Shown piece after piece: positions 782 to 26,806 of a stretch of 64,000 nucleotides of DNA. The stretch is from the IMG/VR virus record IMGVR_UViG_3300032320_001447, positions 32,001-96,000 of that record. One strand, 5' to 3'. Within the stretch, counting starts at the first letter, position 1, and each line of letters starts with the position of its first letter. The notes beneath the pieces are model-generated. The model was not told where the DNA came from, ran no database searches, and saw nothing but the letters and a program-made list of their open reading frames with translations. The position numbers were made by a program, and so were the translations under genes. The stretch comes from a virus (taxonomy: Duplodnaviria > Caudoviricetes).

Positions 782-2731
782 TTATGGACATGATCCATCA
801 AACATTGAAATTGTTACTGTACCTGCATCGCTTACAACTTGTCCAGAAAATGTTCTACTTGTTGATGTTGCACTTATACAAGTTACATTAGATGCAGTAT
901 CAATAACTTCAACGGAGTCATTACTTATATTTGTGTAAGATACAACAATTGTTCTAGATGCACCAGTTTGCGTAGTTGTAGCAGACGCTCCATCACCAGC
1001 AACTATTGGGAATACCGCGCCATCAACTTGTACTCCATTAACAGTTATGTTTGTTATTGATGTACCGGCTGTATTATTAGCAATATCTACGAATGCATAT
1101 CCTAACGCAGCACTAGGTGTAGGTGTTGGCGTTAAACTAGGAGTTCTAGTCGGTGTTAAACTAGGCGTTGGTGCTGGCGTTGAACTAGGAGTTCTAGAAA
1201 CGCTTGGAGTAACCGTTGGTGTTCTACTTGGTGTAGGCGAAGGCGCTATACAAGATACCACGACGGCCGTTGATACTCCTTTATTACCGGCTGTATCCAT
1301 TATAGCTACGTAATATGTGTCATTTATTAATCCTGTAAAATTATACTCTGTGGCTCCACCTATAAATGTTCTTGTTGCTGAATTATCTAATCTAGATAGC
1401 GCATCTGCTGCAGATATTGCGCTGATTGTTATATAATCAAAGCTGTTTGTACCACCTCCAAATGCATTAGCGTATATTCTGCCATTTCCATTATAAACAG
1501 GTTCATCACAAAATGCAGTTACTGATAATGTTATTGGTATTATTGATGTAGATGGAGTAACTGAAGGAGTTACGCTAGGAGTTCTAGTCGGTGTTACAGA
1601 AGGTGTTCTAGAAACGCTTGGTGTTACACTCGGTGTTAAGCTAGGAGTTCTAGAAACGCTTGGTGTTACACTCGGTGTTAGACTTGGTAATATAGGAGGT
1701 TGACAAGTACATCCTCCTCCTGTTAAATAACCTGTACCGCCATCAAAAGAAACCGGTAAAGTATTAACATTACATACGCAGAGCAAAGTTCCTGTTGGAA
1801 AATATTCGTTTCTATCTATAGCATTACAATCTTTCCAAAAGAATGTACCAGAATTAGATACATAATACTCTCTACTTGTACACACTATACTCGTGCTCGG
1901 AGTTACAGACGGCGTTAAACTAGGAGTTCTAGAAATACTAGGTGTTACACTAGCTGTTATGCTTGGTGTTACAGAAGGCGTTATAGAAACGCTTGCTGTT
2001 ATGCTTGGTGTTACAGAAGGAGTTAAACTAGGAGTTCTAGAAACGCTTGCTGTTATGCTCGGTGTTACAGAAGGAGTTATAGAAACGCTTGGCGTTACAC
2101 TAGCTGTTATGCTTGGTGTTACAGAAGGCGTTATAGAAATACTAGCTGTTATGCTCGGTGTTATGCTAGGAGTTCTAGAAATACTAGGTGTTACACTAGC
2201 TGTTATGCTTGGCGTTACAGAAGGCGTTATAGAAATACTAGCTGTTATGCTTGGTGTTATGCTTGGTGTTACAGAAGGCGTTATAGAAATACTAGGCGTT
2301 ACACTAGCCGTTATGCTTGGTGTTATGCTAGGAGTTATAGATATCGATGGAGTTCTACTAATACTAGGCGTAATAGATATCGATGGAGTAATGCTAATAG
2401 AAGGCGTTACACTTGGTGTTATAGATATCGATGGAGTAATGCTAATAGAAGGCGTTACACTTGGTGTTATAGATATCGATGGAGTTCTACTAATACTAGG
2501 AGTTATAGAAACACTTGGTGTTATACTAGGCGTTGTGCTAGCTGTTACGCTAGGAGTTATAGAAGGCGTTATAGAAACACTTGGCGTAACTGATGGAGTG
2601 CCGCTAACGCTTGGTGTAACTGATGGAGTAACGTTAAAAATTGGTACAAGAATATCGAACCTTCCGTTTCCGCTTAGATTAGAGAATCGCATTCCTCCAG
2701 TCCCGGTTCTATTTTGAAATTCTATTGGCAT
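782..2731 (-). CDS. Thr-Pro-Ser repeat (mucin-like) virion/surface protein
   Basis: About 250 aa of TPS(I/V)/SITPS repeats, plus two further TPS tracts separating three small Cys-containing beta-rich domains. Confidence 0.75.
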   Translation of the reverse strand: MPIEFQNRTGTGGMRFSNLSGNGRFDILVPIFNVTPSVTPSVSGTPSVTPSVSITPSITPSVTASTTPSITPSVSITPSISRTPSISITPSVTPSISITPSISITPSVTPSISITPSISITPSISRTPSISITPSITPSITASVTPSISITPSVTPSITPSITASISITPSVTPSITASVTPSISRTPSITPSITASISITPSVTPSITASVTPSVSITPSVTPSITASVSRTPSLTPSVTPSITASVSITPSVTPSITASVTPSISRTPSLTPSVTPSTSIVCTSREYYVSNSGTFFWKDCNAIDRNEYFPTGTLLCVCNVNTLPVSFDGGTGYLTGGGCTCQPPILPSLTPSVTPSVSRTPSLTPSVTPSVSRTPSVTPTRTPSVTPSVTPSTSIIPITLSVTAFCDEPVYNGNGRIYANAFGGGTNSFDYITISAISAADALSRLDNSATRTFIGGATEYNFTGLINDTYYVAIMDTAGNKGVSTAVVVSCIAPSPTPSRTPTVTPSVSRTPSSTPAPTPSLTPTRTPSLTPTPTPSAALGYAFVDIANNTAGTSITNITVNGVQVDGAVFPIVAGDGASATTTQTGASRTIVVSYTNISNDSVEVIDTASNVTCISATSTSRTFSGQVVSDAGTVTISMFDGSCP

Positions 2732-2757
2732 TTATGTATTTTTAAACCAATCTAAAT

Positions 2758-2765
2758 ATAAATAT
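2758..2765 (-). promoter_or_regulatory. putative late promoter ATATTTAT
   Basis: Motif about 27 nt upstream of the start at 2731. Confidence 0.6.
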
Positions 2766-3205: not shown

Positions 3206-5584
3206 TTATTTGTTCTTAAGTTCGTCTAATTCTGCTTTAAGTTCTTGTACTGCTTTTACTAAAGATGCTACTATTGCATTATAATTTAAACCTATAAATG
3301 TATCTTTGCCTTCTCCACTTTGAACATACGCTTGTGGGATATGTTCTTTTACCTCTTGTGCAATAAATCCTAATTCTTTATTATCTTTTGTATCATCTGT
3401 TTTTATTCGGTATAAAGTAGGTTTTAGTTGCAAAATTTCATTTAGTCCAATTGTAGAAGGTTCAAAATCTTTCTTTTTATTAATATCCGATAATGCAGTA
3501 TAAGTACCTGTTGACATATTAATTTGTGCGATATTTCCACCAAAGTAAAAATATGTAAGCCCACCAGTACCATACATTGTATATCTATCACCATTACTTC
3601 TAGAAGCGTAACTATAACCAGCTACACTACCAGTTGAAAGTAATTCTCCATTAATTTGTAATTTATCTCCAGTATTGGTGCCAGTACCTATTAATACATT
3701 ACCCCCACTTGTAATACGCATTCTTTCGGTATTGTTAGTACCAAGTGTTAAAGCATGATTTGAAAAAGTAAATAATGCAGTTAATAAGTCAGCTTCATTA
3801 GACGCAAGGAAAGATTTTACAGTTGTAGTATTACAATGATAAAAACTATACCCCCCGCCTGCATCATTTAATTCAAAATGCCTACCAGCTAAACTATATG
3901 TTGTAGGACTAGTCGTTCCAATTCCAACATTTCCAGCGCCTGTAATACGCATTCTTTCTGTAGGCGCAGTATTAGCAGCATTCGCTGTATGTAATGTTAT
4001 ATAAGAAGTTCCTGTATCTGAGTTCAATAATATAGCTGATCCTGCATAAGAAGTATTGGTTAAACCACTCCACGTAAAAGATCCATTAGACGTATTTTCT
4101 ATATTGTGTGACCATGAAGCGCCGGCAGTTGTACCGGCAGTTTGAACATCACTTAAGAAAACCGGAACCGTAGTACGTTGTATTTTTAAAGATAAAGGAT
4201 TAGTACCATCGTATAAATGTAATCTAGTATCAGGAGCTGTAGTTCCAATTCCAACTCTACCAGCATTTGTAAGAGTCATCACAGTGGTGTTAGTATTGTA
4301 ATTACTAGCAGCACTATTATCTCTTAATGCAATATCTAATCTAGTATAAGATTCATAAGCGCCACCCGCATTTTGATATCTACCTAGTTTTAATGAAGCA
4401 GCTTGTTGGAAAGATACTCCACCACTTAAAGCTCTACCTATTATTAATATATCTTCTGTGCCTGTTGTTCCTATAGCAGAGCTACCTTCAACATGTAATT
4501 TTTGTACAGCGCTAGTCGTTCCAATTCCAACATTGCCAGTAAAAGAAGAAGTTGTATTAGCTCCAGACTGAATGATGGATCCGGTTATTCTTAAACTACC
4601 GGTTACGCTATGGTTATCCGTTAAAAGATTTCCGATAACTACTCCATTGCTAGTTACTTGAAATTCTGTTCCAGTAGTGCTTACGGTCAAACTTCCTGTG
4701 ATGTTAACCGAACCAGTAAAATCATGGGTATTCGTTAACAGGCTACCGAATCTAGTACTACCCGTAACGAAACTAACAGAGCTAGTGATCGTTTGTACCA
4801 CTAGCGTTTGAGCGGTTATAGCGCCCGTAGTTAAAATAGCAGAGGCAGAAATTGGACTAGCAGAGCTCAAAGATCCGGTTAAAGAGAGACCGTTTGTTAT
4901 TCTAACCGATCCAGATACGTCTAGCGTAGTCACCGGAGCTTCTGTTCCTATTCCAACTCTAGATTGAGATACGAATAGAGCTCTCTGTCCGAACTGACCG
5001 ATTCTCACCGTGTTATCTGAGAACGCTTCTATTATTGGAAGACCTGCTGCAGTATTAACCGAGAATAGAGATCCGGACAAAGAATCGTCTACTTCGAATA
5101 GTCTACCTACAGTTCCATCAACAGAGAATACACTAGAGCCGGATCCCAGTATTTGTAAAGCGTAAGATGAGGCCGAAATATTTGTAGAACCAGAAACTCT
5201 AAAGGACCCAGTAATTGAAGCAGAGCCAGTGAAAGGAAATCCAGCTCCTGATCCTCCACCACCTCCCAATAGAAAAGAAGCGGTTAAAGCTTGAGATGCA
5301 GTTCCAAATAAGGAGCCAGTAAAAGACCCTGTGAAAGATCCAGTAACTGATGCTACTGACCCGGATACTTTAATGGCTTCAAATCCGTACCTTCCTATTC
5401 TTATTGTATTGTCGGAAAAAGCTTCCATTACAGGAATACCCGAAATATCGCTCACTGCAAATAAAGAACCAGAAAGTTGATCGGTTACAGAGAACAATTG
5501 GCCTTGTGAGCCTTGTATGTCTAGTATTACGGACCCAGATCCGTTTACTACGAGTCCTTTACGGACTTTAAATTCGTTTGCCAT
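3206..5584 (-). CDS. tail fibre with C-terminal intramolecular chaperone (peptidase S74) domain
   Basis: GNVGIGTT / ERMRIT repeats; C-terminal SDINKKKD...LKP..Y...LGFIAQEV...LVKAVQEL. Confidence 0.85.
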   Translation of the reverse strand: MANEFKVRKGLVVNGSGSVILDIQGSQGQLFSVTDQLSGSLFAVSDISGIPVMEAFSDNTIRIGRYGFEAIKVSGSVASVTGSFTGSFTGSLFGTASQALTASFLLGGGGGSGAGFPFTGSASITGSFRVSGSTNISASSYALQILGSGSSVFSVDGTVGRLFEVDDSLSGSLFSVNTAAGLPIIEAFSDNTVRIGQFGQRALFVSQSRVGIGTEAPVTTLDVSGSVRITNGLSLTGSLSSASPISASAILTTGAITAQTLVVQTITSSVSFVTGSTRFGSLLTNTHDFTGSVNITGSLTVSTTGTEFQVTSNGVVIGNLLTDNHSVTGSLRITGSIIQSGANTTSSFTGNVGIGTTSAVQKLHVEGSSAIGTTGTEDILIIGRALSGGVSFQQAASLKLGRYQNAGGAYESYTRLDIALRDNSAASNYNTNTTVMTLTNAGRVGIGTTAPDTRLHLYDGTNPLSLKIQRTTVPVFLSDVQTAGTTAGASWSHNIENTSNGSFTWSGLTNTSYAGSAILLNSDTGTSYITLHTANAANTAPTERMRITGAGNVGIGTTSPTTYSLAGRHFELNDAGGGYSFYHCNTTTVKSFLASNEADLLTALFTFSNHALTLGTNNTERMRITSGGNVLIGTGTNTGDKLQINGELLSTGSVAGYSYASRSNGDRYTMYGTGGLTYFYFGGNIAQINMSTGTYTALSDINKKKDFEPSTIGLNEILQLKPTLYRIKTDDTKDNKELGFIAQEVKEHIPQAYVQSGEGKDTFIGLNYNAIVASLVKAVQELKAELDELKNK

Positions 5585-5592
5585 TAGTTTAT

Positions 5593-5614
5593 CCTTTTTT
5601 CATTTTCCAAAAGG
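5593..5614 (-). promoter_or_regulatory. leader hairpin CCUUUU-GGAAAAUGAA-AAAAGG (candidate translational operator)
   Basis: 6-bp stem ending 8 nt before the ATG; counterpart at 13336-13360. Confidence 0.5.
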
Positions 5615-5620
5615 TCATTT

Positions 5621-5628
5621 ATAAATAT
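5621..5628 (-). promoter_or_regulatory. putative late promoter ATATTTAT
   Basis: Motif upstream of fibre gene 3206-5584. Confidence 0.6.
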
Positions 5629-5640
5629 CAAAAAGATTGG

Positions 5641-6306
5641 TTATAGTCCAAAACGAGCTTTAGTTGCGTTGTAGTTTTGAGTAACTTCGTCTGCAGATAG
5701 CGCTCTATTGTATACTTGAACTATTGGAATATTACCATTAACATATTCTCCACTATCGTTTGCCCATCTTCCAATATTACATGTTGTATTCCCAACATAG
5801 TAACCAGCTGCGGTTCTACTTGTATTAAAAATACCATTTTGATATATACTTTGAACAAACCCTGTTGTTAATGTAACAGCGAAGCAATTCCATACTCCGG
5901 TAATGCTTGTCACAGTAGCAGATAAATCATCGTTATACATACCAAAAAGAAAACTAGTATTATTTACCATTCTTAAATGAAGTGCCTGCCTAGTTGCGGC
6001 ACCAGTTCCAATGCTAAACACGGTATCACTAGTAGGAGTCACATTAGAGTAAACCCAACATATTATAGTAAAAGCGCTACTTGCTATATTAATAGTATCA
6101 GTTACATATTGATTAGTTCCATTAAATACTAAACCTCCTCCATTACTAGAAGTAAACGTTGGACTATTTACTAGTGTTCCATTATTATTATTTCCACTTA
6201 AATCATTCCACACAGTTCCTGTCCCAGGGTAGCTGTTCAGACTAGCAGCGTCCAACTCTAATACGAGTCCATTTCTTACTATATTTGCGCCTCCTATTGT
6301 TGCCAT
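5641..6306 (-). CDS. LamG / concanavalin A-like lectin domain protein
   Basis: GLVLELDAAS.NSYPGTGTVW.DLSGNNNNGTL...YNRALSA.EV.QNYNATKARFGL. Confidence 0.85.
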   Translation of the reverse strand: MATIGGANIVRNGLVLELDAASLNSYPGTGTVWNDLSGNNNNGTLVNSPTFTSSNGGGLVFNGTNQYVTDTINIASSAFTIICWVYSNVTPTSDTVFSIGTGAATRQALHLRMVNNTSFLFGMYNDDLSATVTSITGVWNCFAVTLTTGFVQSIYQNGIFNTSRTAAGYYVGNTTCNIGRWANDSGEYVNGNIPIVQVYNRALSADEVTQNYNATKARFGL

Positions 6307-6307
6307 G

Positions 6308-6982
6308 TTATAAGTTGAATCTTGATTTTATTGCGTTGTAATTTTGTAGGATTTCTGCTGCGGATAGCGATCTATTGTAAAATTGAATATTTGATATACT
6401 GCCTTGAAAAAAATCTCCTGCATTACGATCAAAACTAGTAGCGATATTTCTAGCGTTCGAAGTAATCCCACCAGAAAAACTCCCAACTGCAGAATTATCA
6501 AAAATGCCATTCATATATATTGCACGTGTAGTGCCGTTTACGACAAAAGTAGCATTATGCCAAGCGTTAGTTGTTAAAGTTAAATTGCTATCTAAAGCAG
6601 TATCTTGAGAAGTAGATCCATTACCTATAATAATTCTTATTTTATTGCTTTCTTGTGCAAAAAGATAATTTCTACCAGAAGCACTCCAATCTGATGTTAA
6701 ATATGAATTGGCTACTCTTGTAGGTAGGAACCACACACCTACGCTATAATTAGTATTGAGTCTTGTTAACGAACTAGGCAGGCTAATATTTTGAGTAGTT
6801 CCATTAAATGTTAAAATACCGGCATTAGCAAAACTAAACGTAGGTGTATTTACTAAAGTTGCATTATTGTTATTCCCGCTCAAATCGTTACAATTAGTTC
6901 CGGTCCCAGGATAACTATTCCTACTAGCAGCATCCAAAGACAATACCAATCCATTTCTTATTATGTTTGCTCCTGTGTACAT
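6308..6982 (-). CDS. LamG / concanavalin A-like lectin domain protein
   Basis: Same conserved N- and C-terminal motifs, with a WHNATFV core. Confidence 0.85.
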   Translation of the reverse strand: MYTGANIIRNGLVLSLDAASRNSYPGTGTNCNDLSGNNNNATLVNTPTFSFANAGILTFNGTTQNISLPSSLTRLNTNYSVGVWFLPTRVANSYLTSDWSASGRNYLFAQESNKIRIIIGNGSTSQDTALDSNLTLTTNAWHNATFVVNGTTRAIYMNGIFDNSAVGSFSGGITSNARNIATSFDRNAGDFFQGSISNIQFYNRSLSAAEILQNYNAIKSRFNL

Positions 6983-7668
6983 TATAGATTGAATCTTGAT
7001 TTTTGAGCGTTATAGTTTTGTTGTATTTCTGCTAATGTTAAAACTCTATTGTATATTTGTGTGTTGGCTATTTTACCATTAAAGTATCGGCTATCTAAAG
7101 TGTTACCTCCAATGGCGATGTTGGGATTTGCTGTTAAAGCCGCAGAAGTGGCGCTCGTACTTCCTTCGGATATACCATTTATATATACTTGTTTAGAGCT
7201 TCCACTACCATTTTTTACTGCGGTTATATAAAACCAAGCACCCGTGTTTAGTATAATGCTTCCGTTTAAAGAAGAGTCTGGATTGCCCGTAAAAAAGGAA
7301 ATCTGATTGTTTAATATGGCCAATACAAAATCGTTAAAAGTACCCGCTACGTCTGACCATATAATTCCGTTGCCTTGCCAAGCTTGAGTACCCGTTAAAC
7401 TTGTTGCGGTTGTGCTTATCCAACACGCTAATGTAAAATTTACACCCGTAGTATTCGATAAAGCTATGTAATCATTCGTTCCATCAAAAACAAAAGTACC
7501 ACCATTATCAGAACTAAATGTTGGCGAGTTAGTTAACGTTCCGTTAGTGTTGTTTCCACTTAAATCTCTCAAAGTAGTTCCAGATCCAGGGTAGCTGTTC
7601 CTACTGCCTGCATCGTAAGCCACTATAAGTCCATTGGTTACTGTTTTTGGGCCTCTATTAAATGCCAT
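6982..7668 (-). CDS. LamG / concanavalin A-like lectin domain protein
   Basis: Same conserved N- and C-terminal motifs; TAATG coupling to the next gene. Confidence 0.85.
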   Translation of the reverse strand: MAFNRGPKTVTNGLIVAYDAGSRNSYPGSGTTLRDLSGNNTNGTLTNSPTFSSDNGGTFVFDGTNDYIALSNTTGVNFTLACWISTTATSLTGTQAWQGNGIIWSDVAGTFNDFVLAILNNQISFFTGNPDSSLNGSIILNTGAWFYITAVKNGSGSSKQVYINGISEGSTSATSAALTANPNIAIGGNTLDSRYFNGKIANTQIYNRVLTLAEIQQNYNAQKSRFNL

Positions 7669-7669
7669 G

Positions 7670-10600
7670 TTATAACAGTCTTATTAGTGAACGAATTGTC
7701 CAAGCTGCAGTAGATGCGCTAGCTTGAAGCTGTATGTTACCGGCAGAAATTCCAGTTTGTAATAGCACTCCTGATGTGCTACCTCCCAAATCTGCTGTGT
7801 AGTTTTCGTAGTATTCGGTAGCAGATCCTGACCATGTTGAGGTTACCGTTCCTGCTCTTACAATAGAGCCTGAGAACATTACGTAGTCGAAGAACGCAGC
7901 TCTGTAAGACGAAGTTGCCTCTGATGCAATTACTTGATAGCCTCCTGCGGAAACCGATAAGTTTTGACCGTAATCGAATGAAGCTGATTGAACAGTAACT
8001 ACTCCGAATACTGTTTGATTACCACTTAAAGTTAAACTGCCTGTAATATTCACGCTACCAGTCATGGTTTGCGTATTAGTCAACGCATTACCAAAGATGT
8101 TAGAACCAGAACTATAAGTAATAGAACTTGTGATGGTTTGTACTACTAGAGTTTGCGCAGTTAGAGTTCCAGTTGTAGTGATGTTTCCAGTAGAATTGAT
8201 AGATCCTGTAACTCCTAAACTGCCTGTGATTTGAGCGGATCCTGTGAAAGGAAATCCCGCTGCTGATCCACCGCCTATTAAGAAAGAAGCAGTTAATGCG
8301 TTTGTAGCGTTTATCGCATAAGAAGCAGACGTAGCGATTAGTGAAGACGACGCTAAAATAGCAGAACTTGCCGTATAAGCGTAACTAGCGGAAACTGCTT
8401 GCGATGCGGTTCCAAAATAAGATCCACTAAAGTTACCTTGATAAGACCCAGAAAAAGATCCACTAAATGTGCCAGTTCCAGAAGAAGCAAAAGATGCAGA
8501 TATGGCTGTATTAGCTGTAGTAGCGCTTATTACTACAGAAGACGAGTAGCCTCCTTTAGAAGCTACCGCGACACCAGTAGTAGGAGTAGAAAAGTAGATT
8601 AATGCAGAAGAAGTGTCAACCGCTTGTATTCTTTGAGGAATTATAACACTATTCGTGTTGTCGTATATTGTGAATACTGGGTACTGAGTCTGTAAGAAGT
8701 GATTAAAGGACCAAGTAAACGCTGCGGATGAGGTTTGAAATAGTATGGAGCTAGCGCTTCCTCCTAATGCAAAAGACGCAGTTAGAGCGTTTTGTGCCCA
8801 AGAAGCGGTACCGAATAAAGAACCTGTAACTGAACCTGATAAAGATCCTGTGATAGATCCAAGTATTGCTAAAGATCCTGTAAGATTATGAGAATCGGTT
8901 ATTAGATTACCTATCTTGGTGCCAGTGTTAGTAACTTGAAATTCTATTCCGCTACCTGTTACAACTGTAAAACTACCAGATATAAGTACTGCTTGGGTTA
9001 AGGTATTAACAGAAGAGGCAGTTTGAGCTAAACTTGAACTTATAGCAGAACTTGCTGTGAATGCGTAGGAAGCTGATGTGACAGACCCAGTTATGAAGTT
9101 AGTTGCCCAACTAGCTGTTCCAAATAAAGAACCTGTAAGATCTGTAGCAGTTACACGACCAATAATAGTAGCTGAACCGGATACATTCAAACTGCCTGTC
9201 ATTGTTTGAGTATTCACAGTAGAATTTCCAAAAATATTACTACCAGAAGAGAATACTATAGAGCTAGTAACTGTTTGTACTACCAAAGTTTGTGCAGTTA
9301 AAGTTCCAGTTGTAGTGATATTTCCAGTAGAATTTATAGAGCCTGTAACTCCCAAAGAACCGGTGATTTGTGCAGATCCTGTGAAAGGAAATCCAACTCC
9401 TGATCCGCCACCTATTAGGAAAGAAGCTGTTAATGCATTTTGTGCCCAAGAAGCAGTACCGAAGAGAGATCCAGTAATTCCGTTACTAACAGATAAACTT
9501 CCTGTAATTGCTCCTGAACCTGTGATAATTAAAGAACCTGTGATAAGTAGTGTATCTGCGTTAGAAGAAAATGCGCTAGATCCCTGGTTTGCAGTAACTG
9601 ATAAACTGCCCGTAATTCCAAGACTTCCGGTTATTTGTGCAGATCCCGTATAAGGAAATGCTGCTCCACCACCACCGGTAACTGTAACTGTTGCTACACC
9701 ACCGCCTACAGTTGCTGTAACTCCTGAACCTACAAAGTTAATAGTGCCTGCTGATCCTTGTGGAGATCCCTCATCTTGAATATTAATAGTACTTGCACCT
9801 GCTAATACGTAAGATGCTGTAGTTGCATAGGATGCACTTATTGCTTGTGATGCTGTACCGAATAGAGAAGCCGTAACAGAACCTGAGAAAGATCCTGTAA
9901 ATGCGCCGCTGCCTCTTAAACTAAAGGAAGCTGTTTGAGCTAAACTTGAACTAATAGTAGAGCTAGCAGTGAAAGCATAAGAAGCCGAGGTAACAGAGCT
10001 GGTTATGAAGTTAGTTGCCCAGCTAGCAGTTCCGAATAGAGAACCAGTAATATCTGTAGCTGTGACTCTACCTATAATAGTAGCTGAACCTGAAACGTTC
10101 AAACTACCCGTCATTGTTTGAGTATTAGCTGTACTATTTCCAAAGATATTGCTACCTGAACTAAACACAACAGAAGAGCTAACTGTTGTTACTACTAAGG
10201 TTTGAGCAGTTAGAGTTCCGTTGATTAGAGCTACTGATGCGGTAATTGCTCCTAAAATATTTTGACTTCCAGTATAGATATTAGAACCCGTAGTAGCGTA
10301 CGTTCTTTCTATTTGCGTTACTCTTGTTGAGAAAGATCCAGATGCTACTTGAAGAGAGGCTGTAGTCGCTTCTATGCTAGATACACGACTAGAGAAAGAA
10401 GAACTATCACTGGTGATTCTTGTGGAGAAAGACGCACTTGCTGCAACCAAATTGGAAGCAGTAGTTTCAGTATTAGTAAGTCTTGTAGAAAATGAACCTG
10501 ATGCGGTTACTAAAAGTGAAGAGGTAGCTTCTTCGTTAGTAAGTCTTGTGGATATCGAACCAGATCCTAGATAATTAACTGCGAATGATGAACTAATTGC

Positions 10601-13327
10601 ACTACTAGCAGTGAATGCAAAAGAAGAAGAAACGGCTTGAGACGCAGTTCCAAATAAAGAACCGGTAATTGAGCCAGACAAAGAACCTGTGATACCAGAT
10701 AAAACAATTAAGCTGCCGGTTATAATTGCGTTACCATTTACGTCGAATGCTGCGCTTGATCCAGTTTTACCGATAGCGATTCTATTTCTTACAAATAAAT
10801 TGCCTTGACCTAATCCTACGGGCGCTAAAGTGGTGGAATCGTATCCAACAAATAACGTATTACTAAATGCATAATCACCCCATCCATTAAATAACAATAC
10901 GCCTCCTTGTGTATTGTCCGATCTTGAGGACGATAATACTGTAGTAACGGTATCGCCTATTATTTGAATACCATTGCGAGGTCTAATTAAGCCATTTACG
11001 TCTAGTAAAGCTTGAGGTATACCATTCAATGGAGTAATTCCTCCAATACCAACGTAAGCGCCACTTGATGAAATGAATATTCTAGAAGTACCGTTAGTTT
11101 CTAATACTAAATTTTGTAAATCGTTAGTTCCTAATACAGCTTGAGCGCCAAATGAATTACCATTTTGAAGAAAAGCGCCAGTTGCGTTTGTTGCAAAAGA
11201 AGAACTTATCGCTGAGCTAGCTGTGAATGCGTATGATGCTGATGTAACTGACCCAGTTACGAAGTTAGTTGCCCAACTAGCTGTGCCAAATAGAGAACCA
11301 GTAATATCTGTAGCTGTGACTCTACCTATAATAGTAGCTGAACCTGAAACGTTCAAACTACCCGTCATTGTTTGAGTGTTGGCAGTAGAATTTCCAAAGA
11401 CATTAGAGCCCGAACTAAACACAACTGAAGAACTAACTGTGCTTACTACCAAGGTTTGCGCAGTTAAAATTCCATTGATTAGCGCAGCTGAAGCAGTTAT
11501 TGCTCCTAAAATGTTTTGACTTCCTGTGAATATGTTTGAGCCAGTAGTAGCGTAGGTTCTTTCAATTTGTGTTACTCTTGTTGAGAAAGATCCAGATGCT
11601 ACTTGAAGTGACGCTGTAGTTGCTTCTATGCTAGATACACGTGAAGAGAAAGAAGAACTATCACTTGTAATTCTTGTTGAGAATGAACTTGATGCAGTTT
11701 CTAAAGAGGTCGTTCTTGTAGAGAAAGAAGCACTCGCTGCAATTAAATTTGAAGCTGTAATCTCTGTGTTGGTTACTCTAGTAGAAAATGAACCTGAAGC
11801 TGTTACTAGGTTAGACGCTGTAATCTCTGTGTTAGTTGTTCTTGTAGAAAATGATGCACTTGCAGCAACTAAATTGGAAGCAGTAGTTTCAGTGTTAGTA
11901 AGTCTTGTGGATATCGAACCAGATCCTAGATAGTTAACTGCGAATGATGAACTAATTGCACTACTAGCAGTGAATGCAAAAGAAGAAGAAACAGCTTGTG
12001 AGGCAGTTCCGAATAGAGAAGCGGTAACTGAACCTGAGAAAGATCCGGTAAAGCTTCCACTAAAAGTAGCGGATACGATTCCAGGAAAACTAGTATTACC
12101 TGAGCCATCTAATAGCGTAGCCGTTCTTACTAACGAACTAAATACACCGGTATATTGTCTAACGTGTATAGGTTCTGTGCCATCATCTGCGGTTGCTATT
12201 TCAGCAAAACCTGCGTTTGTTGCCGTACCACCAACTAAAATTCTAAATTGGTCATTATCGGCCATATTGCCTCTAACAAGTTCTGTTGAGTTTGTGCCCG
12301 TTACAGTAGCAATAACAGTAGATGCAGTTGAAGCAAAAGAAGAGGATACGGCTTGAAATGCATTGGTTGCGCTAGATGCTGTGAATGCGTAAGAAGCCGA
12401 GGTAACAGTTCCTGGAGCCACGGTTAATATATTACCTCCTGAGTCTACTGCTAAGTTTGCTACTACCGTTCCTGGGAAAGCTCCAGCGCTGGTGTAAGAA
12501 GTGAACGCAATTTGATTTGTATTTAAGTTAGCGCTTAATACTTCTCCAATACTTCCTGTATTCGTCCCTCTTAATAGTCTAAATCTATTTTGATAAAGAT
12601 CAAGCATTGAGGCAGATGTATATGTACCTCCTGGTGCATTAAATCCAAGTTGACCTCCTTCATTTGCGGTATCACGAGCTCCTAAAGTTAAAGTATTTTC
12701 GATAGCTCCTATTGATCCTGACCCTACTACTAAACTTCCTGTTATTACTACATTTTGATTTAGTGTATTAACGAAAGATGCAGTTGAAGCAAAAGAAGCG
12801 CTAATAGCTGAAGATGCGGTGAAAGCAAAAGAAGCAGAAGTAACGGACCCAGTTACAAAGTTAGTCGCCCAGCTAGCAGTACCAAATAAAGATCCAGTAA
12901 TTCCAGAGCTAACTGTTAAAGACCCAGTTATAGTTGAACTACCTGAGATGATTTCGTTACCTCTAACTGTTAAACTTCCAGTGATGCCTACGGATCCAGT
13001 AAGTACTTGAGTGTTAGATAGACTATTACCAAAAATATTAGACCCAGAGCTGTATACTACAGAAGAGCTAATCGTGCTGACCACCAAGGTCTGAGCAGTT
13101 AACGTATTAGCAACAGTAAAGTTGTTTGCGAAGCTTGAGGTTTGCGCGAAAGAAGCTGAGAATGCGTTTGAGGCAGAGCTAGCCGTAAAAGCGTAAGACG
13201 CAGAGACTGCTTGACTTGAGGTACCGAACAGGCTACCGGTTATACCGTTGGTTACTATAAGACTTCCGGATACTACGGAGTTATTTTGGGCGATGACGCC
13301 ATTTCTTGCTACGAATTCGTTTGGCAT
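7670..13327 (-). CDS. giant Ser/Thr/Gly/Ala-rich fibre protein (1885 aa)
   Basis: Repeated TGSLFGTAS, TLTAQTLVV..SSGSNIFG, SGSFSTR and FPFTGSAQITGS modules; C-terminal beta domain shared with 21378-26693. Confidence 0.75.
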   Translation of the reverse strand: MPNEFVARNGVIAQNNSVVSGSLIVTNGITGSLFGTSSQAVSASYAFTASSASNAFSASFAQTSSFANNFTVANTLTAQTLVVSTISSSVVYSSGSNIFGNSLSNTQVLTGSVGITGSLTVRGNEIISGSSTITGSLTVSSGITGSLFGTASWATNFVTGSVTSASFAFTASSAISASFASTASFVNTLNQNVVITGSLVVGSGSIGAIENTLTLGARDTANEGGQLGFNAPGGTYTSASMLDLYQNRFRLLRGTNTGSIGEVLSANLNTNQIAFTSYTSAGAFPGTVVANLAVDSGGNILTVAPGTVTSASYAFTASSATNAFQAVSSSFASTASTVIATVTGTNSTELVRGNMADNDQFRILVGGTATNAGFAEIATADDGTEPIHVRQYTGVFSSLVRTATLLDGSGNTSFPGIVSATFSGSFTGSFSGSVTASLFGTASQAVSSSFAFTASSAISSSFAVNYLGSGSISTRLTNTETTASNLVAASASFSTRTTNTEITASNLVTASGSFSTRVTNTEITASNLIAASASFSTRTTSLETASSSFSTRITSDSSSFSSRVSSIEATTASLQVASGSFSTRVTQIERTYATTGSNIFTGSQNILGAITASAALINGILTAQTLVVSTVSSSVVFSSGSNVFGNSTANTQTMTGSLNVSGSATIIGRVTATDITGSLFGTASWATNFVTGSVTSASYAFTASSAISSSFATNATGAFLQNGNSFGAQAVLGTNDLQNLVLETNGTSRIFISSSGAYVGIGGITPLNGIPQALLDVNGLIRPRNGIQIIGDTVTTVLSSSRSDNTQGGVLLFNGWGDYAFSNTLFVGYDSTTLAPVGLGQGNLFVRNRIAIGKTGSSAAFDVNGNAIITGSLIVLSGITGSLSGSITGSLFGTASQAVSSSFAFTASSAISSSFAVNYLGSGSISTRLTNEEATSSLLVTASGSFSTRLTNTETTASNLVAASASFSTRITSDSSSFSSRVSSIEATTASLQVASGSFSTRVTQIERTYATTGSNIYTGSQNILGAITASVALINGTLTAQTLVVTTVSSSVVFSSGSNIFGNSTANTQTMTGSLNVSGSATIIGRVTATDITGSLFGTASWATNFITSSVTSASYAFTASSTISSSLAQTASFSLRGSGAFTGSFSGSVTASLFGTASQAISASYATTASYVLAGASTINIQDEGSPQGSAGTINFVGSGVTATVGGGVATVTVTGGGGAAFPYTGSAQITGSLGITGSLSVTANQGSSAFSSNADTLLITGSLIITGSGAITGSLSVSNGITGSLFGTASWAQNALTASFLIGGGSGVGFPFTGSAQITGSLGVTGSINSTGNITTTGTLTAQTLVVQTVTSSIVFSSGSNIFGNSTVNTQTMTGSLNVSGSATIIGRVTATDLTGSLFGTASWATNFITGSVTSASYAFTASSAISSSLAQTASSVNTLTQAVLISGSFTVVTGSGIEFQVTNTGTKIGNLITDSHNLTGSLAILGSITGSLSGSVTGSLFGTASWAQNALTASFALGGSASSILFQTSSAAFTWSFNHFLQTQYPVFTIYDNTNSVIIPQRIQAVDTSSALIYFSTPTTGVAVASKGGYSSSVVISATTANTAISASFASSGTGTFSGSFSGSYQGNFSGSYFGTASQAVSASYAYTASSAILASSSLIATSASYAINATNALTASFLIGGGSAAGFPFTGSAQITGSLGVTGSINSTGNITTTGTLTAQTLVVQTITSSITYSSGSNIFGNALTNTQTMTGSVNITGSLTLSGNQTVFGVVTVQSASFDYGQNLSVSAGGYQVIASEATSSYRAAFFDYVMFSGSIVRAGTVTSTWSGSATEYYENYTADLGGSTSGVLLQTGISAGNIQLQASASTAAWTIRSLIRLL
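10035..11377. repeat. 89-bp exact direct repeat (10035-10123 and 11289-11377) within a larger internal duplication
   Basis: Direct comparison; neighbouring blocks near 10.3-10.6 kb and 11.6-12.0 kb are also near-identical. Confidence 0.9.
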
Positions 13328-13335
13328 GTTCTAGT

Positions 13336-13360
13336 ACCCCAGTTCCCATTTCCCTGAGGT
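13336..13360 (-). promoter_or_regulatory. leader hairpin ACCUCAG-GGAAAUGGGAA-CUGGGGU (candidate translational operator)
   Basis: 7-bp stem (one G-U) ending 8 nt before the ATG; GC-rich island in an AT-rich intergenic region. Confidence 0.55.
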
Positions 13361-13371
13361 GCAGGTTTTAT

Positions 13372-13379
13372 ATAAATAT
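13372..13379 (-). promoter_or_regulatory. putative late promoter ATATTTAT
   Basis: Motif upstream of the 1885-aa fibre gene. Confidence 0.6.
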
Positions 13380-13393: not shown

Positions 13394-14104
13394 TTAAGCG
13401 ATTTTAAAACGACGCTTAAGTGCATTAAAATTCTGTGTCACCTCTGCTGCTGATAGTGCACGATTGTATACTTGAACTAACCCAATGTAGCCTTGAAAAT
13501 ATTCGGTCGATGTTGGATCGCCGCCTACGTAAAAAGGCATGTTACCCGAGAAAAATGTAGGGTTATCTCCAGTTCTAAGATATGGAGGAGACGTCTCAGT
13601 TGTTAATGTTGGTGTACTTAGCGTATTATAATATAACTTCATGTTGTTTGTATTAGTACCAAAAGTAGCTCCGTCCCAAACAGCACACATATTGTTCCAT
13701 TTAGATATAGGTTGTGGTAGATATACTTGACCAGGATTCATTTCAAACTTTTGAGTTGTTATCTTATAAAAGGTAGAACCCGGTCCTCTATATCCCGCAA
13801 CTACATTATCGTCTTGAAACTCTGGAACATACCATGCATTTATTGAAAAGGATGAGGATATGCTTTGCTGTGGAAGAGTAAAATTAGTGGAAACGTAACG
13901 CTGTTGAGTTGTATTAAAACCGAATGCCGCGGCTCCATTAAAAGAATCATAACTAACTCCATTAACTAAACTTCCGCTATAATTATTTCCACTCAAATCT
14001 CTCCAAATAGTGCCCGAACCAGGATAGCTGTTTCTATCACCGGCGTCTAAAGCCAATACAAGTCCGTTTGTTACTAATTTTCCATTTGCGTATTTCGTTG
14101 CCAT
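13394..14104 (-). CDS. LamG / concanavalin A-like lectin domain protein
   Basis: GLVLALDAGDRNSYPGSG...YNRALSAAEVTQNFNALKRRF. Confidence 0.85.
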   Translation of the reverse strand: MATKYANGKLVTNGLVLALDAGDRNSYPGSGTIWRDLSGNNYSGSLVNGVSYDSFNGAAAFGFNTTQQRYVSTNFTLPQQSISSSFSINAWYVPEFQDDNVVAGYRGPGSTFYKITTQKFEMNPGQVYLPQPISKWNNMCAVWDGATFGTNTNNMKLYYNTLSTPTLTTETSPPYLRTGDNPTFFSGNMPFYVGGDPTSTEYFQGYIGLVQVYNRALSAAEVTQNFNALKRRFKIA

Positions 14105-14108
14105 AACT

Positions 14109-14369
14109 TTATATTATACGTGAATATATTATACGTGAATTCCATTCTTCCGTAGAAAGAATTTCAATTATTTCATCATGCGTATATGGTCCTTCACTTC
14201 CAACTAAAGTAGATACAAATGAAGGCTGTTCATCTGTCCATTTTACAAATGTTTTTGAATTATCGACTGATTTTCTTACGGTTTCTTCCGAAGTTTCTAA
14301 TACTTGTGTAAAATCTACTTTAGAAAGTTCTGTTGTTGGTAAAATGATATATTTTCTTGTGTCGTACAT
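14109..14369 (-). CDS. small protein embedded in LamG cluster (possible adaptor/chaperone)
   Basis: Clean 86-aa ORF between LamG genes; the C-terminus is extended by a 15-bp tandem duplication. Confidence 0.7.
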   Translation of the reverse strand: MYDTRKYIILPTTELSKVDFTQVLETSEETVRKSVDNSKTFVKWTDEQPSFVSTLVGSEGPYTHDEIIEILSTEEWNSRIIYSRII

Positions 14370-14372
14370 GTG

Positions 14373-14441
14373 TTATAAATTAAATTTTGATTTTTTTGCG
14401 TTGTAGTTTTTTTGAATTTCTCAAACTGAAAGAACTCTATT
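14373..14441 (-). pseudogene. C-terminal remnant of a deleted LamG gene
   Basis: Translates NRVLSV*EIQKNYNAKKSKFNL*, compared with intact NRVLTLAEIQQNYNAQKSRFNL* in 6982-7668. Confidence 0.85.
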
Positions 14442-15111
14442 TTAAGCCGAATCGTGATTTTAAGGCGTTGTAGTTTTGACGAATTTCTGTTGTTGTAAGT
14501 GCTCTGTTATATATGGAGACTTCTGAGATATTACCATTCATAAATTGACTACCATCATCAGTTCTTCCTCCTAAAGATATAGTATCACTAGCACTCCAAG
14601 TTACAGTGTTTGCACTTCCATATGAAACAGAATTTACATAAGTTTTATAACCATTTGTAATACTATTTCCCTCACGAACAAACACCACATTATACCAAGT
14701 ATTTACTGCTATGGTTGGAGTGCTTAAAGATTGCCCAGATAATCCATCACTTGTCCAGAAACCCAAATTAGGAGTGGAGATATCCATTAATAGAAGTATA
14801 TAATTAGGAGTTGGAATACTAATTATATTTCTATAACCGCTAGAAACTACATTTGTTTTAAACCAAACAGACCAAGTAAACGCATTGGAAGAAATATAAG
14901 ATGTATTAACTATATCATTAGTGCCATCAAATACAATACTACCACCATTAGCACTATTAAATGTAGGTCCATTAACTAATGACCCACTATTATTATTTCC
15001 ACTAACATCATTCCATGTAGTTCCAGTCCCAGGATAACTATTTCTATCAGCAGCATCTAGCGCTAATACTAATCCATCTTGAATCGCATTTGGTCCACCT
15101 GATACTCCCAT
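14437..15111 (-). CDS. LamG / concanavalin A-like lectin domain protein
   Basis: Conserved family termini; WYNVVFV core. Confidence 0.85.
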   Translation of the reverse strand: MGVSGGPNAIQDGLVLALDAADRNSYPGTGTTWNDVSGNNNSGSLVNGPTFNSANGGSIVFDGTNDIVNTSYISSNAFTWSVWFKTNVVSSGYRNIISIPTPNYILLLMDISTPNLGFWTSDGLSGQSLSTPTIAVNTWYNVVFVREGNSITNGYKTYVNSVSYGSANTVTWSASDTISLGGRTDDGSQFMNGNISEVSIYNRALTTTEIRQNYNALKSRFGLK

Positions 15112-15112
15112 A

Positions 15113-15829
15113 TTATGTTAGATTAAAGCGTGATTTTGTTGCGTTGTAGTTTTGAAGAACTTCTGTTGTATTTAATATAGTATTATATATTTTTACACTA
15201 TATATATTTCCAGCAAAATATTCACCTACAGGGCTTGCTCCATATCCTGCTCCTATTATTAAAGGAGGAGTTGAATATGATATAGCTCCTGCTGTGAAAG
15301 TTGTTGATGATAATACAGAACCATTTAAATAAACTACAGCGGCTCCTGTAGAACTATTAAGTGTAAAAGTTACATTATATATAGTGTTAGCTACAAAAGT
15401 ATAATTTGGTTGTAAAGCTCTATATGTGCCTCCAGTGTTTGTACTACATTCTAATACAGTTCCAGTATTATTTATTCTTATCATATAAGATAAATAAGGA
15501 GGAGTCCAAACAGGACCGTTAAAAGGTTTTGATATTATATTTGAAAATGAATTAAAAGAAGTAGGTCTAAACCAAGTATCAATACTAAATGAAGCAGGTC
15601 TAAGAGTACTGTTATCAGATGCAGTAGCATAATCATTAGTGCCATCAAATACAATACTACCACCATTACCACTATTAAATGTAGGACCATTTGTTAATGT
15701 TCCAGTATTGTTATTTCCACTTAAATCAGTCCAAGTAGTACCTGAATCAGGATAACTGTTTCTATCGGCAGCGTCTAAAGCAAGCACCAATCCGTTTGTT
15801 ACTATTTTTGGGCCATTATCGAATGACAT
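15113..15829 (-). CDS. LamG / concanavalin A-like lectin domain protein
   Basis: Conserved family termini. Confidence 0.85.
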   Translation of the reverse strand: MSFDNGPKIVTNGLVLALDAADRNSYPDSGTTWTDLSGNNNTGTLTNGPTFNSGNGGSIVFDGTNDYATASDNSTLRPASFSIDTWFRPTSFNSFSNIISKPFNGPVWTPPYLSYMIRINNTGTVLECSTNTGGTYRALQPNYTFVANTIYNVTFTLNSSTGAAVVYLNGSVLSSTTFTAGAISYSTPPLIIGAGYGASPVGEYFAGNIYSVKIYNTILNTTEVLQNYNATKSRFNLT

Positions 15830-19302: not shown

Positions 19303-19974
19303 TTATATTCCGAAGCGTCCTCGTGTTGCATTAAAGTTTTGTAGTAATTCATCATTAGATAATCGTCTATTGTAAATATATACAGCATATATTCTTCCTT
19401 TATATAATCTTCCATTAAAAGTCTGAGATAAAGTGGATACAGACATCCCTCCACTTAAAGCACCAAGATAAAAGTCTTGCGTTAGTGTTCTTCCTTCAGG
19501 TACTATAAAATACCCTGAGGCATTAGTTGATAAGTTAGATTGACCATTTATCATAAAAGAAGATACATAATTTAGTTGAAAGTCATTAGAATTAGGAGCA
19601 TTAGGTGCTGCGGCTCTAAAAGTTCCACCTTCTGTTCTTAGAGAACTATCTCCAGTAACTGAGTTACAAACTAAACCTGCTAAGCCTACAATGGTAGGAT
19701 CAAACCTACCCCAAAAGCATATAGTTTGTGCTGTTACAGAGGAAAATGTAGCATAATCATTAGTACCATCAAATACAATACTCCCTCCATTATCAGAATT
19801 AAATGTAGGTCCATTTATCAATGTTCCATTATTATTATTCCCACTCATATCCTTCCACACCCCGGCATCCACTAAATCATTATATGAATTCTTAGCTGAT
19901 GCATCTAAGTACAATACTAAACTACTGTCCTTTATTATATTTGGTCCTCGCCATGTTCCACTTACTGTACTCAT
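19303..19974 (-). CDS. LamG / concanavalin A-like lectin domain protein (divergent core)
   Basis: LVLYLDAS...W.DMSGNNNNGTLINGPTFNS.NGGSIVFDGTND...YNRRLS..ELLQNFNATRGRFGI. Confidence 0.8.
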   Translation of the reverse strand: MSTVSGTWRGPNIIKDSSLVLYLDASAKNSYNDLVDAGVWKDMSGNNNNGTLINGPTFNSDNGGSIVFDGTNDYATFSSVTAQTICFWGRFDPTIVGLAGLVCNSVTGDSSLRTEGGTFRAAAPNAPNSNDFQLNYVSSFMINGQSNLSTNASGYFIVPEGRTLTQDFYLGALSGGMSVSTLSQTFNGRLYKGRIYAVYIYNRRLSNDELLQNFNATRGRFGI

Positions 19975-20657
19975 AGTCCAAATCTTGATTTTAGGGCGTT
20001 ATAGTTTTGGAGAACTTCGGTTGCGGTGAGGGCGCGGTTGTATATTTGGGTAGTTGCAATATTTCCTGGGAAATAAAATCCTAGACTTGATCCAAATGTT
20101 CCTATCATTAAGTTTCCTCCAGCTTGTGTAACAGTTGCTGGTATAGAAGTTGTAGAATTTTGTAAAATACCATTTAAATATATTAATGTAGAATTTAAGG
20201 ACTTATTATAAACACATATTCCTTGCCTCCAGATCCCATCATTAACTGTAATTGGAGTAGCAATATCAATTTTAGAAGGTGATCCAAAAGAAAAATTAAG
20301 TCTATTAGAGGAATCTAAACCAATCCACCAGTCAGCACCAGACCCATTATACATCCCCATCATTACTTTAACAATTCCTGTAGAAGTGGTATTAAAAAAA
20401 TAGCTTATTGTAAAAGAATCTGTAAAAGTTAATGGATTTCCACAATTAGTATACTGATTTGTTCCATTAAATGTAATACTACCGCCATTAGTTGTACTAA
20501 ATGTAGGACTATTAATTAAAGAACCACTATTATTATTCCCACTAATATCATTCCATACAGTTCCACTACCAGCATAAGAATCTTTCTTAGCCGCGTCCAA
20601 ATTTAGTACTAATCCGTCTTTGACTATACCTCCGTAATATGATATTCTTCCTGCCAT
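19971..20657 (-). CDS. LamG / concanavalin A-like lectin domain protein
   Basis: Conserved family termini. Confidence 0.85.
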   Translation of the reverse strand: MAGRISYYGGIVKDGLVLNLDAAKKDSYAGSGTVWNDISGNNNSGSLINSPTFSTTNGGSITFNGTNQYTNCGNPLTFTDSFTISYFFNTTSTGIVKVMMGMYNGSGADWWIGLDSSNRLNFSFGSPSKIDIATPITVNDGIWRQGICVYNKSLNSTLIYLNGILQNSTTSIPATVTQAGGNLMIGTFGSSLGFYFPGNIATTQIYNRALTATEVLQNYNALKSRFGL

Positions 20658-21373
20658 TATATTAAGCCGAAGCGTGTTTTTGTTGCGTTATAATTTTGTA
20701 GGATTTCTGTTGCCGTAAGTGCTCTGTTGTATATTTGAACATTAGAAATATTGGAATTGATGGAGGTAGATGGTTTGCTAAATGGTCTACATCCAACTAC
20801 TAAACTATTCATACCTATAGTACTAGTGGTATTATTTAATCTATTTGTACCTAATTGAGGATTTCCATTTAAATAAAATTGAATATACGTTGATGATATG
20901 CTAAAACATATATTAGCCCATGTTCCAAAAGGTACATTTGAAGTCATAAAATTAAATCCCCCTGAAATTGTTAATATTCCTCCTTCAAAACTACATTTTG
21001 AAAAATTTAAAGTTGCATCTGCCTGCATATCGATATTAAAGCCAGAATTATAATCATTTCCGCTTGCTCCTACTGCTCCTATAAATGCTTTGTAACCTCC
21101 TGAATTTGATAAAACTTTAACAGTCATTTGAACTGTCATATCATTTAAAGTGGTTAAATTTCCAAATTGACAAAAGTCATTAGTTCCATCAAATACAATA
21201 CTCCCACCATTAGCAGAATTAAATGTAGGTCCGTTAGTTAAAGTTCCATTATTTCCTCCTCTACTTAAATCATTCCACGCAGTTCCACTACCAGGATACG
21301 ACCTAGAATTAGCCGCATCCAAGTACAGTACTAAACCGTCTGTTACTATTTTAGGTGAATAGTTAAATCCCAT
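20657..21373 (-). CDS. LamG / concanavalin A-like lectin domain protein
   Basis: Conserved family termini. Confidence 0.85.
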   Translation of the reverse strand: MGFNYSPKIVTDGLVLYLDAANSRSYPGSGTAWNDLSRGGNNGTLTNGPTFNSANGGSIVFDGTNDFCQFGNLTTLNDMTVQMTVKVLSNSGGYKAFIGAVGASGNDYNSGFNIDMQADATLNFSKCSFEGGILTISGGFNFMTSNVPFGTWANICFSISSTYIQFYLNGNPQLGTNRLNNTTSTIGMNSLVVGCRPFSKPSTSINSNISNVQIYNRALTATEILQNYNATKTRFGLI

Positions 21374-26693: not shown

Positions 26694-26708
26694 ATTTTCT
26701 TCTAATTA

Positions 26709-26755: not shown

Positions 26756-26798
26756 AGTAGATTCTATTACTAGAAACTAATTAATAAGTTTGCTATAA

Positions 26799-26806
26799 AT
26801 AAATAT
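26799..26806 (-). promoter_or_regulatory. putative late promoter ATATTTAT
   Basis: Motif about 105 nt upstream of the start at 26693. Confidence 0.55.

Follow-up and report, generated by a model that had tools for sequence, protein, structure and literature searches.

Among the closest described parallels to the element reported here is the operator of the T4/RB69 DNA polymerase, gp43, a leader hairpin with a conserved loop to which gp43 binds (PMC3014915). The element is a hairpin found in the leaders of tail-fibre genes in a 64,000-nt stretch of viral DNA (the window), which spans positions 32001–96000 of the 174,359-bp phage genome IMGVR_UViG_3300032320_001447, a single contig of 35.5% G+C. 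It shares with the gp43 operator its place in the leader of a T4-type phage gene and a loop that is conserved across phages while the stem differs; in the operator, a phage protein reads the hairpin and controls translation downstream. The gp43 operator, however, has a UAAC-type loop, overlaps the Shine-Dalgarno sequence (SD) and acts autogenously on an early replication gene, whereas the fibre hairpin has the loop GGA-NARU-GAA, is without an SD and precedes a late structural gene. The hairpins of T4 gene 38 and gene 25 (PMC3014915) are likewise structured tail-fibre and baseplate leaders, which tune initiation and are conserved within a subgroup. They lie between SD and AUG in split ribosome-binding sites, act in cis only and are not conserved in the loop, whereas the fibre leaders have no SD and an invariant loop.

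Further parallels come from cellular RNAs. Archaeal L7Ae (Sulfolobus acidocaldarius) represses its own translation through a kink-turn (k-turn) with a minimal C helix in the 5' untranslated region (UTR) of its mRNA (PMC5539422). The l7ae k-turn, too, is a short 5' UTR hairpin near the start codon, with tandem G.A/A.G pairs after a 3-nt bulge, a short Watson-Crick stem and almost no C helix; protein binding there represses translation, whereas in the phage the G.A pairs are predicted and the repression is putative. The two differ in that searches of the phage and of the likely host family yielded no L7Ae-family protein, in that the phage loop has a single base in place of the C helix, and in that the regulated phage gene encodes, as far as known, a virion fibre and not the binding protein. 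The box C'/D' K-loops of archaeal guide RNAs (PMC8413462) resemble the predicted form of the loop itself: their 5' strand ends in GA, their 3' strand contains RUGA, sheared G.A pairs stand in tandem beside a Watson-Crick stem, and a terminal loop takes the place of stem I. The third pair, however, would be A.G in the phage and is U.U in the K-loops, the phage loop is shorter, and its setting is the mRNA leader of a bacterial virus rather than a guide RNA, with no L7Ae/Nop5/fibrillarin system. Finally, the Hag-FliW-CsrA system of B. subtilis, in which a leader-binding RNA-binding protein is combined with a partner that senses the free filament subunit (PMC6529632), is a model for the assembly-tied subunit translation that was proposed for this locus at the outset; here CsrA was not found and the site architecture differs.

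Outside T4, little is known of how virion structural genes are controlled after transcription, and next to nothing for phages of the Bacteroidota, hosts in which SD pairing is largely unused. The hairpin is a compact, strongly supported RNA motif of ~25 nt that is tied to one class of receptor-binding fibre and occurs in dozens of related contigs. It offers a testable handle on the control of fibre dosage in such phages and is one half of a candidate recognition pair of RNA and protein, a new one that could serve as a small orthogonal switch of translation.

Two fibre genes of one phage share the hairpin

The major capsid protein of the phage is 53% identical to that of Flavobacterium phage vB_FspM_immuto (hereafter immuto) and more remotely akin to T4-type capsid proteins, from which the phage is a T4-like myovirus, probably with a Flavobacterium-type host. 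Both hairpins, together with their promoter-like boxes, spacers and fibre genes, are on the minus strand. The features are as follows, with the 649-aa gene included for comparison:

3206–5584, minus strand: tail-fibre gene, 792 aa, protein start MANEFKVRKG, C-terminal Peptidase_S74 chaperone domain
5585–5592, minus strand: 8-nt A-rich spacer, AUAAACUA, from hairpin 1 to the ATG at 5584
5593–5614, minus strand: leader hairpin 1, with 5' arm CCUUUU (5614–5609), loop GGAAAAUGAA (5608–5599) and 3' arm AAAAGG (5598–5593)
5621–5628, minus strand: ATATTTAT late-promoter-like box of the 792-aa fibre gene, upstream of hairpin 1
7670–13327, minus strand: giant fibre gene, 1885 aa, protein start MPNEFVARNG
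13328–13335, minus strand: 8-nt spacer from hairpin 2 to the ATG at 13327
13336–13360, minus strand: leader hairpin 2, with arms ACCUCAG (13360–13354) and CUGGGGU (13342–13336) and one U.G pair
13372–13379, minus strand: ATATTTAT box of the 1885-aa fibre gene, upstream of hairpin 2
782–2765, minus strand: comparison gene, 649 aa, protein start MPIEFQNRTG, with a ATATTTAT box at 2758–2765 and no hairpin

A prior model-made reading of the window's letters (the sequence-only reading) had placed hairpins at these two sites, and both are there: the arms pair, the stems are unrelated in sequence, and each hairpin ends 8 nt before the ATG and downstream of a ATATTTAT box, in front of proteins that start MANEFKVRKG and MPNEFVARNG. 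That reading had noticed the element in no other leader, and this also holds. A covariance model built from homologous leaders (R1) finds just two copies in the whole 174-kb genome, with scores of 37.5 bits (E 6e-8) for hairpin 1 and 15.6 bits for hairpin 2. Hairpin 1 is a canonical member of the family. Hairpin 2 is a divergent copy, in which the loop (GGAAAUGGGAA, 13353–13343) has 11 nt and a G replaces the usual U before GAA; the U-to-G change is seen also in homologue L057, and a close homologue of the 1885-aa gene, L140 (MPNEFIARNGVIAQNNS), has the canonical loop GGACAGUGAA. The leader of the 649-aa gene shows neither a fold (z +0.43) nor an R1 match. A weak R1 match of 19.5 bits at 59335–59365 on the plus strand was taken as chance and rejected as a real hairpin, since it lies inside the coding region 58861–59778 and the GAA half of the loop is absent.

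Taken one at a time, the folds are unremarkable. Hairpin 1 has a predicted energy of -4.2 kcal/mol (z -2.25), which 8 of 200 dinucleotide shuffles equal or better, and hairpin 2 one of -10.1 kcal/mol (z -1.55), as good as or worse than 17 of 200. Because each single fold is weak, the pair within this genome does not by itself exclude chance, and the case for the element is made by its homologues.

The stem covaries around an invariant loop

With the N-terminal 200 residues of the 792-aa fibre as query, IMG/VR yielded 80 loci. In all 35 of them that have an M.xEF start, the ATG is preceded by two matching arms that enclose a GGA-N4-GAA loop. Hairpins added from a DNA pattern scan and from covariance-model searches bring the total to 42 distinct hairpins (alignment A4), to which the following figures refer. 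The 10-nt loop has the consensus GGA-N-A-R-U-GAA, in which G1, G2, A3, A5, G8, A9 and A10 are invariant (42/42) and U7 is kept in 40; A, C or U is seen at position 4 and A or G at position 6. The stems that present this loop are unrelated in sequence; examples are CCUUUU/AAAAGG, CUGUU/AACAG, GUCUCAG/CUGAGGC, GUUUUAG/CUAAAAC, AUUAGUU/AACUAAU, ACCU/AGGU, AUAUAUUUU/AAAAUAUAU and CUCUGU/ACAGAG. In an essentially ungapped alignment, 88.9% of the stem cells are nevertheless paired, with changes on both sides at every pair. The covariation score of 0.843 compares with a column-shuffle mean of 0.192 and was reached in none of 500 shuffles; sliding the 3' partner by 1–3 columns gives scores of 0.243 or less, and the first set of 23 sequences displayed the same covariation picture. 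Unrelated stems in which pairing is kept point to selection on structure and not to shared descent of sequence. Furthermore, G.U pairs outnumber A.C pairs by 12 to 3 on the sense strand, which indicates that the structure is formed by RNA on the mRNA strand. Comparison of homologous leaders was the check that the sequence-only reading had put forward, and it bears that reading out, in that the stem covaries and the loop is conserved.

The position of the hairpin is also well defined. The last paired base lies 5–11 nt from the ATG with a mode of 7–8 (29 of 43 at 7–9), and the gap between box and stem is looser (3–21 nt, most often 5–7, in 20 of 42). The stems, of 4–10 bp, are weak (median -3.1 kcal/mol). 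Of the spacer bases in all members, 60% are A and 4% are G; no SD sequence is present, which fits a Bacteroidota host. The two paralogues in the same genome, hairpins 1 and 2, combine different stems with one loop type, and this suggests that the loop is the part that gets read. We consider it almost certain that the hairpin is a real, selected, structured RNA element.

The element appears to be new to the databases. There is no Rfam match at gathering thresholds in the 64-kb window and no relevant one at E ≤ 1 in four homologous loci, so that the Rfam check proposed with the original observation leaves the element outside Rfam. No copy was found in GenBank phages by megablast, blastn or tblastn, and R1 gave only weak, heterogeneous matches, mostly inside open reading frames, in 151 Flavobacteriaceae genomes, among which no recurrent counterpart of the hairpin was seen. 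We found no description of the element in Rfam or in the searchable literature.

The leaders of genes with an M[AP]NEF[VI]ARNG start (13361–13371 in the window, and L026, L031, L140, L159 and L171) form a class with a G-C closing pair and 7-bp stems. They also have a conserved C-rich tract (AAACCC..) between promoter box and stem, which may be start-site context or may pair alternatively with the loop-edge GGG.

The hairpin goes with an M.xEF N-terminus

IMG/VR was also scanned blind to protein, with the DNA pattern ATATTTAT-N(4-30)-GGAMARTGAA, and the matches were sorted by the presence of a flanking stem of at least 4 bp. The pattern has many chance matches in AT-rich viruses. The matches divide as follows:

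Flanking stem of at least 4 bp (n = 18): M.xEF gene follows in 14, does not in 4
No flanking stem of at least 4 bp (n = 62): M.xEF gene follows in 2, does not in 60

The association between stem and M.xEF gene has a Fisher p of 2.5e-9, computed before locus L093 was counted; the 14 stemmed M.xEF matches include L093, where the gene (MASEFVARKG) lies ~80 nt downstream. The element is thus specific to fibre genes with an M.xEF N-terminus behind a ATATTTAT box, the association that the two window genes had first suggested. Three complete relatives (G001–G003) have one hairpin and one M.xEF gene each, and immuto has neither.

Only about the first 14 residues are common to all hairpin-linked proteins. 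This N-terminal tag reads M-[AP]-N-E-F-x-x-[RK]-x-G and then three hydrophobic residues, with M1, E4, F5 and G10 invariant, and past it the proteins continue into unrelated fibre bodies of 339 to 2062 aa. Synonymous sites in codons 2–12 vary freely; the tag is therefore maintained at the protein level rather than as RNA, and the hairpin is an element by itself. Pairing of the loop with the coding region was rejected on account of the same variation. The fibre N-terminus has no relatives in bacterial genomes, and a sequence search of the PDB was without matches. The link between tag and hairpin is compatible with a partner that ties it to assembly, and co-inheritance of adjacent sequence explains the link equally well.

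The ATATTTAT box and the transcript start

Within the window, each of the 16 copies of the ATATTTAT box runs in the sense direction of the genes around it (8.5 expected). Examples of the 16, other than those at the hairpins, are:

711, 2765, 19289, 28056, 31479, 37325 and 51911, minus strand: ATATTTAT boxes
58488 and 62093, plus strand: ATATTTAT boxes

Genome-wide there are 42 copies, of which ~34 are intergenic and stand 4–45 nt upstream of a same-strand ATG. In immuto, the nearest cultured relative, the box precedes the genes for tail sheath, tail tube, baseplate hub and fibre-like proteins, and G001–G003 contain 52–76 copies each. This distribution marks the box as the predicted late-type promoter motif of this phage group; we found no description of the motif in the literature.

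The distance from box to ATG is usually 4–26 nt, and late mRNAs would therefore have very short leaders. At the genes starting at 37313, 51899 and 62106 (boxes 37325, 51911 and 62093) only 4–5 nt separate box and ATG, and the late mRNAs of these genes may be leaderless or nearly so. From the 4-nt cases we infer that transcription starts ~5 nt past the box. In the two M.xEF genes 36 and 44 nt lie between box and ATG, the hairpin being the extra length, which would place the hairpin at, or a few bases from, the 5' end of the mRNA. Elsewhere in the window, at 32209–32250 on the minus strand, a GC-rich hairpin with a T-run after it (ggcccaacgtaagttgggtcttttttt) stands directly before a ATATTTAT box, an arrangement that resembles a terminator-promoter junction where the capsid gene gives way to another late unit.

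A K-loop-like reading of the loop

A k-turn is defined by a 3-nt bulge followed by G.A, A.G and a further non-Watson-Crick pair and then by regular pairing (PMC4316175), and a K-loop has a loop in the place of stem I (PMC8413462). The invariant loop bases are placed for three stacked purine pairs, G1.A10, G2.A9 and A3.G8, closed by the cap N4-A5-R6-U7: the partners of all three pairs are invariant in 42 of 42 hairpins, A5-R6-U7 precede G8, and the stem follows A10. At the level of sequence, then, the loop has the tandem G.A/A.G arrangement that defines a k-turn, and its 3' strand, RUGAA, resembles the box C core RUGA. Since there is no C helix and N4 is all that lies between A3 and the bulge, only the K-loop form could apply, and the loop may be G.A-paired with a K-loop-like fold. 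The G-G-A/G-A-A arrangement is also that of H. marismortui Kt-7. The sarcin-ricin or loop E motif and the canonical k-turn with a C helix were both rejected, because strand order or a missing helix does not fit.

If the G.A-paired reading is true, this would be a K-loop-like motif that works without an L7Ae-family protein. No member of that family (PF01248) was found in 5 phage genomes or in 201 Flavobacteriaceae genomes, and 7 control genomes matched; if the loop is K-loop-like, it should therefore have some other reader.

A putative translational operator

Loop conservation, stem covariation, position and gene specificity can be accommodated in one mechanism. Late transcription would start a few bases past the ATATTTAT box and give a short UTR made almost entirely of one hairpin and a 7–8-nt A-rich spacer before the AUG. 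The weak stem of 4–10 bp, whatever its sequence, would present the invariant purine-rich loop GGA-N-A-R-U-GAA as three stacked G.A/A.G pairs, a non-canonical helix of k-turn or K-loop type with an RUGA core and a four-base cap. A trans-acting reader of the loop, most probably a phage protein, would lock this otherwise meltable hairpin beside the start codon, and its binding would set how strongly the M.xEF fibre is translated and might also affect how stable the mRNA 5' end is; an autogenous or assembly-coupled loop is possible. Of this scheme, we infer where transcription starts, that the G.A pairs form, that a factor exists and what it is, and in which direction it acts. We put at about 50% the probability that a loop-specific factor binds the weak hairpin and controls fibre translation. 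By analogy with known systems, a loop that stays constant while its weak stem is free to change, positioned just upstream of the AUG where a 30S subunit must sit and repeated with different stems in paralogues, is the signature of a protein-read translational operator. Like operators of the gp43 or MS2-coat type, the leaders combine a conserved loop with a free-sequence stem, which here ends 5–11 nt before the ATG. The tight spacing to the ATG and the weak stems fit an operator that would be locked by protein in the landing zone of the ribosome. It is plausible that such an operator couples fibre synthesis to assembly. In the most specific form of this idea, which we think unlikely, the loop would be a true K-loop read by a new K-loop-binding protein, either the 14-residue tag region of the fibre or a baseplate or adaptor protein onto which the tag docks, and free unassembled fibre or adaptor would shut off fibre translation. 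Were this so, it would be an assembly-coupled feedback on a virion part, like that of ribosomal proteins or flagellin but with new components.

A number of observations weigh against the proposed operator. In L093 (6600–6720 of a 287-kb IMG/VR contig) the hairpin is 8 nt from the box and ~80 nt from the ATG, and ~75 nt with two extra stem-loops separate it from the MASEFVARKG start codon. The hairpin of L137 precedes a gene with a different N-terminus, and conversely the MPIEFQNRTG gene of the window has a similar N-terminus (E4, F5, R8 and G10 kept) and a box with no hairpin, the one case in which the tag is present and the element absent. A true kink may need more than the four bases of the cap, and the 5' end of the mRNA is placed by the box distances described above. 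In addition, searches for RegA, CsrA, bS21 and the L7Ae family found no partner gene in the phage; for RegA (PF01818), not found in this phage genome (G000), the control genomes were also without a match, so that this search had no positive control. A gene-content profile isolated seven G000 genes that are common to the three hairpin-bearing complete relatives and absent from immuto. Besides several unknowns they include genes for RNR-like, DUF5522 and weak Zn-ribbon proteins. None of the seven is clearly RNA-binding, and the profile has immuto as its single negative genome.

The weak Zn-ribbon member of the profile is a 222-aa protein (46464–47132, minus strand) whose zinc-ribbon matches are below the Pfam cut-offs. 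Very tentatively, it could be a candidate RNA-binding factor.

Alternative explanations

The hairpin could instead be a stabiliser, which sits at the 5' end of a long fibre mRNA and guards it from 5'-end-dependent decay with no factor and no translational role. Genes with 4–5 nt between box and ATG imply a start ~5 nt past the box, and with the most frequent box-to-stem gap of 5–7 nt (20/42) the stem would begin at about +1 to +3; in L093, moreover, the hairpin stays by the box with the ATG ~80 nt off. For plain protection, however, a hairpin could do without an invariant 10-nt loop and without a fixed distance to the ATG, and these stems are very weak (median -3.1 kcal/mol, some of only 4 bp). 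The box gap also varies from 3 to 21 nt, and other long late genes do without a hairpin. We regard this explanation as unlikely, if the best of the alternatives.

We think it unlikely, too, that the hairpin acts in cis only, either by damping or positioning ribosome loading, in the way that leader hairpins tune initiation at T4 genes 38 and 25 (PMC3014915), or through the RUG of the loop as a decoy start or mini upstream open reading frame (uORF). AUG or GUG is present in 41 of the 42 loops and opens frames of 2–26 codons that usually end within ~20 nt of the main ATG, and in very short late leaders a 5'-proximal start codon could capture ribosomes. Neither peptide nor frame nor stop position is shared, however (20 frames stop before the ATG and 19 overlap it), which makes a coding uORF unlikely, a decoy start being conceivable; L057 is without an RUG altogether, and a uORF leaves the invariant GGA, A5 and GAA unexplained. 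As for positioning, there is no SD upstream of the stem to be brought closer. An interrupted SD, in which GGA..GUGA would pair with the 16S 3' end, was rejected: positions 4 and 5 are never G, half of the loops read AUGA, and the loop is 11–17 nt from the ATG.

The nascent hairpin could also act on RNA polymerase just past the late promoter, as a pause or as a processive-antitermination signal like lambda boxB/N or HK022 put, so that polymerase would reach the end of very long fibre genes. The element is promoter-proximal and precedes genes of up to 2062 aa, and in a second class of long fibre genes the leader is structured in another way (see below). Since M.xEF genes of only 339–525 aa carry the hairpin as well, and its distance to the ATG is better conserved than that to the promoter, we hold a transcriptional role to be very unlikely; no N- or Q-like factor is known here, though no search was aimed at one.

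Absence of any function is more improbable still. Each hairpin alone is not significant, and leader and N-terminal codons are adjacent and inherited together, so that the element might be a product of chance or a hitch-hiker beside a conserved N-terminal block; alternatively, it might be a DNA-level signal such as a recombination or operator site. Pairing that is kept in unrelated stem sequences argues against the former, variable arms around an invariant centre reverse the layout of a palindromic DNA operator, and G.U is favoured over A.C on the sense strand. The CsrA/RsmA site to which the sequence-only reading had likened the loop can be dismissed, as only the GGA triplet recalls it: CsrA (PF02599) was not found in the phage, in two Bacteroidota genomes or in 201 Flavobacteriaceae genomes, with E. 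coli, B. subtilis and Thermotoga controls matched, each leader has one hairpin, the GGA is at the 5' edge of the 10-nt loop and not at its centre, and the spacer has no SD, whereas CsrA/RsmA leaders usually have at least two sites, with GGA in the middle of a short loop and one site over the SD.

A second fibre-leader motif and the fibre-gene block

A second, larger conserved leader RNA was observed before fibre genes that start MP[SN]WKKV:

26694–26806, minus strand: MP[SN]WKKV leader motif, in the leader of the 1771-aa fibre gene at 21378–26693
L205:3972–4048 (immuto gp052) and L243–L255: other copies of the motif

It consists of UUGGCC, a variable hairpin, GGAAGUGGGC, a second variable hairpin and GUAACCAACC. 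Fourteen pairs are predicted, and 9 of these have compensatory changes among 12 sequences; there is no Rfam match to it in the window. Some copies are followed by an AGGAGA Shine-Dalgarno sequence, from which the motif is also present in phages of other host types. Together, the M.xEF hairpin and the MP[SN]WKKV leader suggest that each fibre class in these phages has its own structured leader.

The genome is 96% coding, and both M.xEF hairpins are inside a long minus-strand run of fibre genes and ~9 paralogues of LamG type (Laminin_G_3). The 792-aa fibre matches Pfam PF13884 (Peptidase_S74) at 9e-11 as well as PHROG tail-fibre families, and it has fibre repeats in common with the 1885-aa protein. 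The LamG-type paralogues, of 221–238 aa, are encoded between the fibre genes (5641–7668, 13394–15829 and 19303–21373, minus strand) and have conserved ends, with ..NGLVL.LDA.. at the N-terminus and ..YNRALSA.E..QNYNA.K.RF at the C-terminus.

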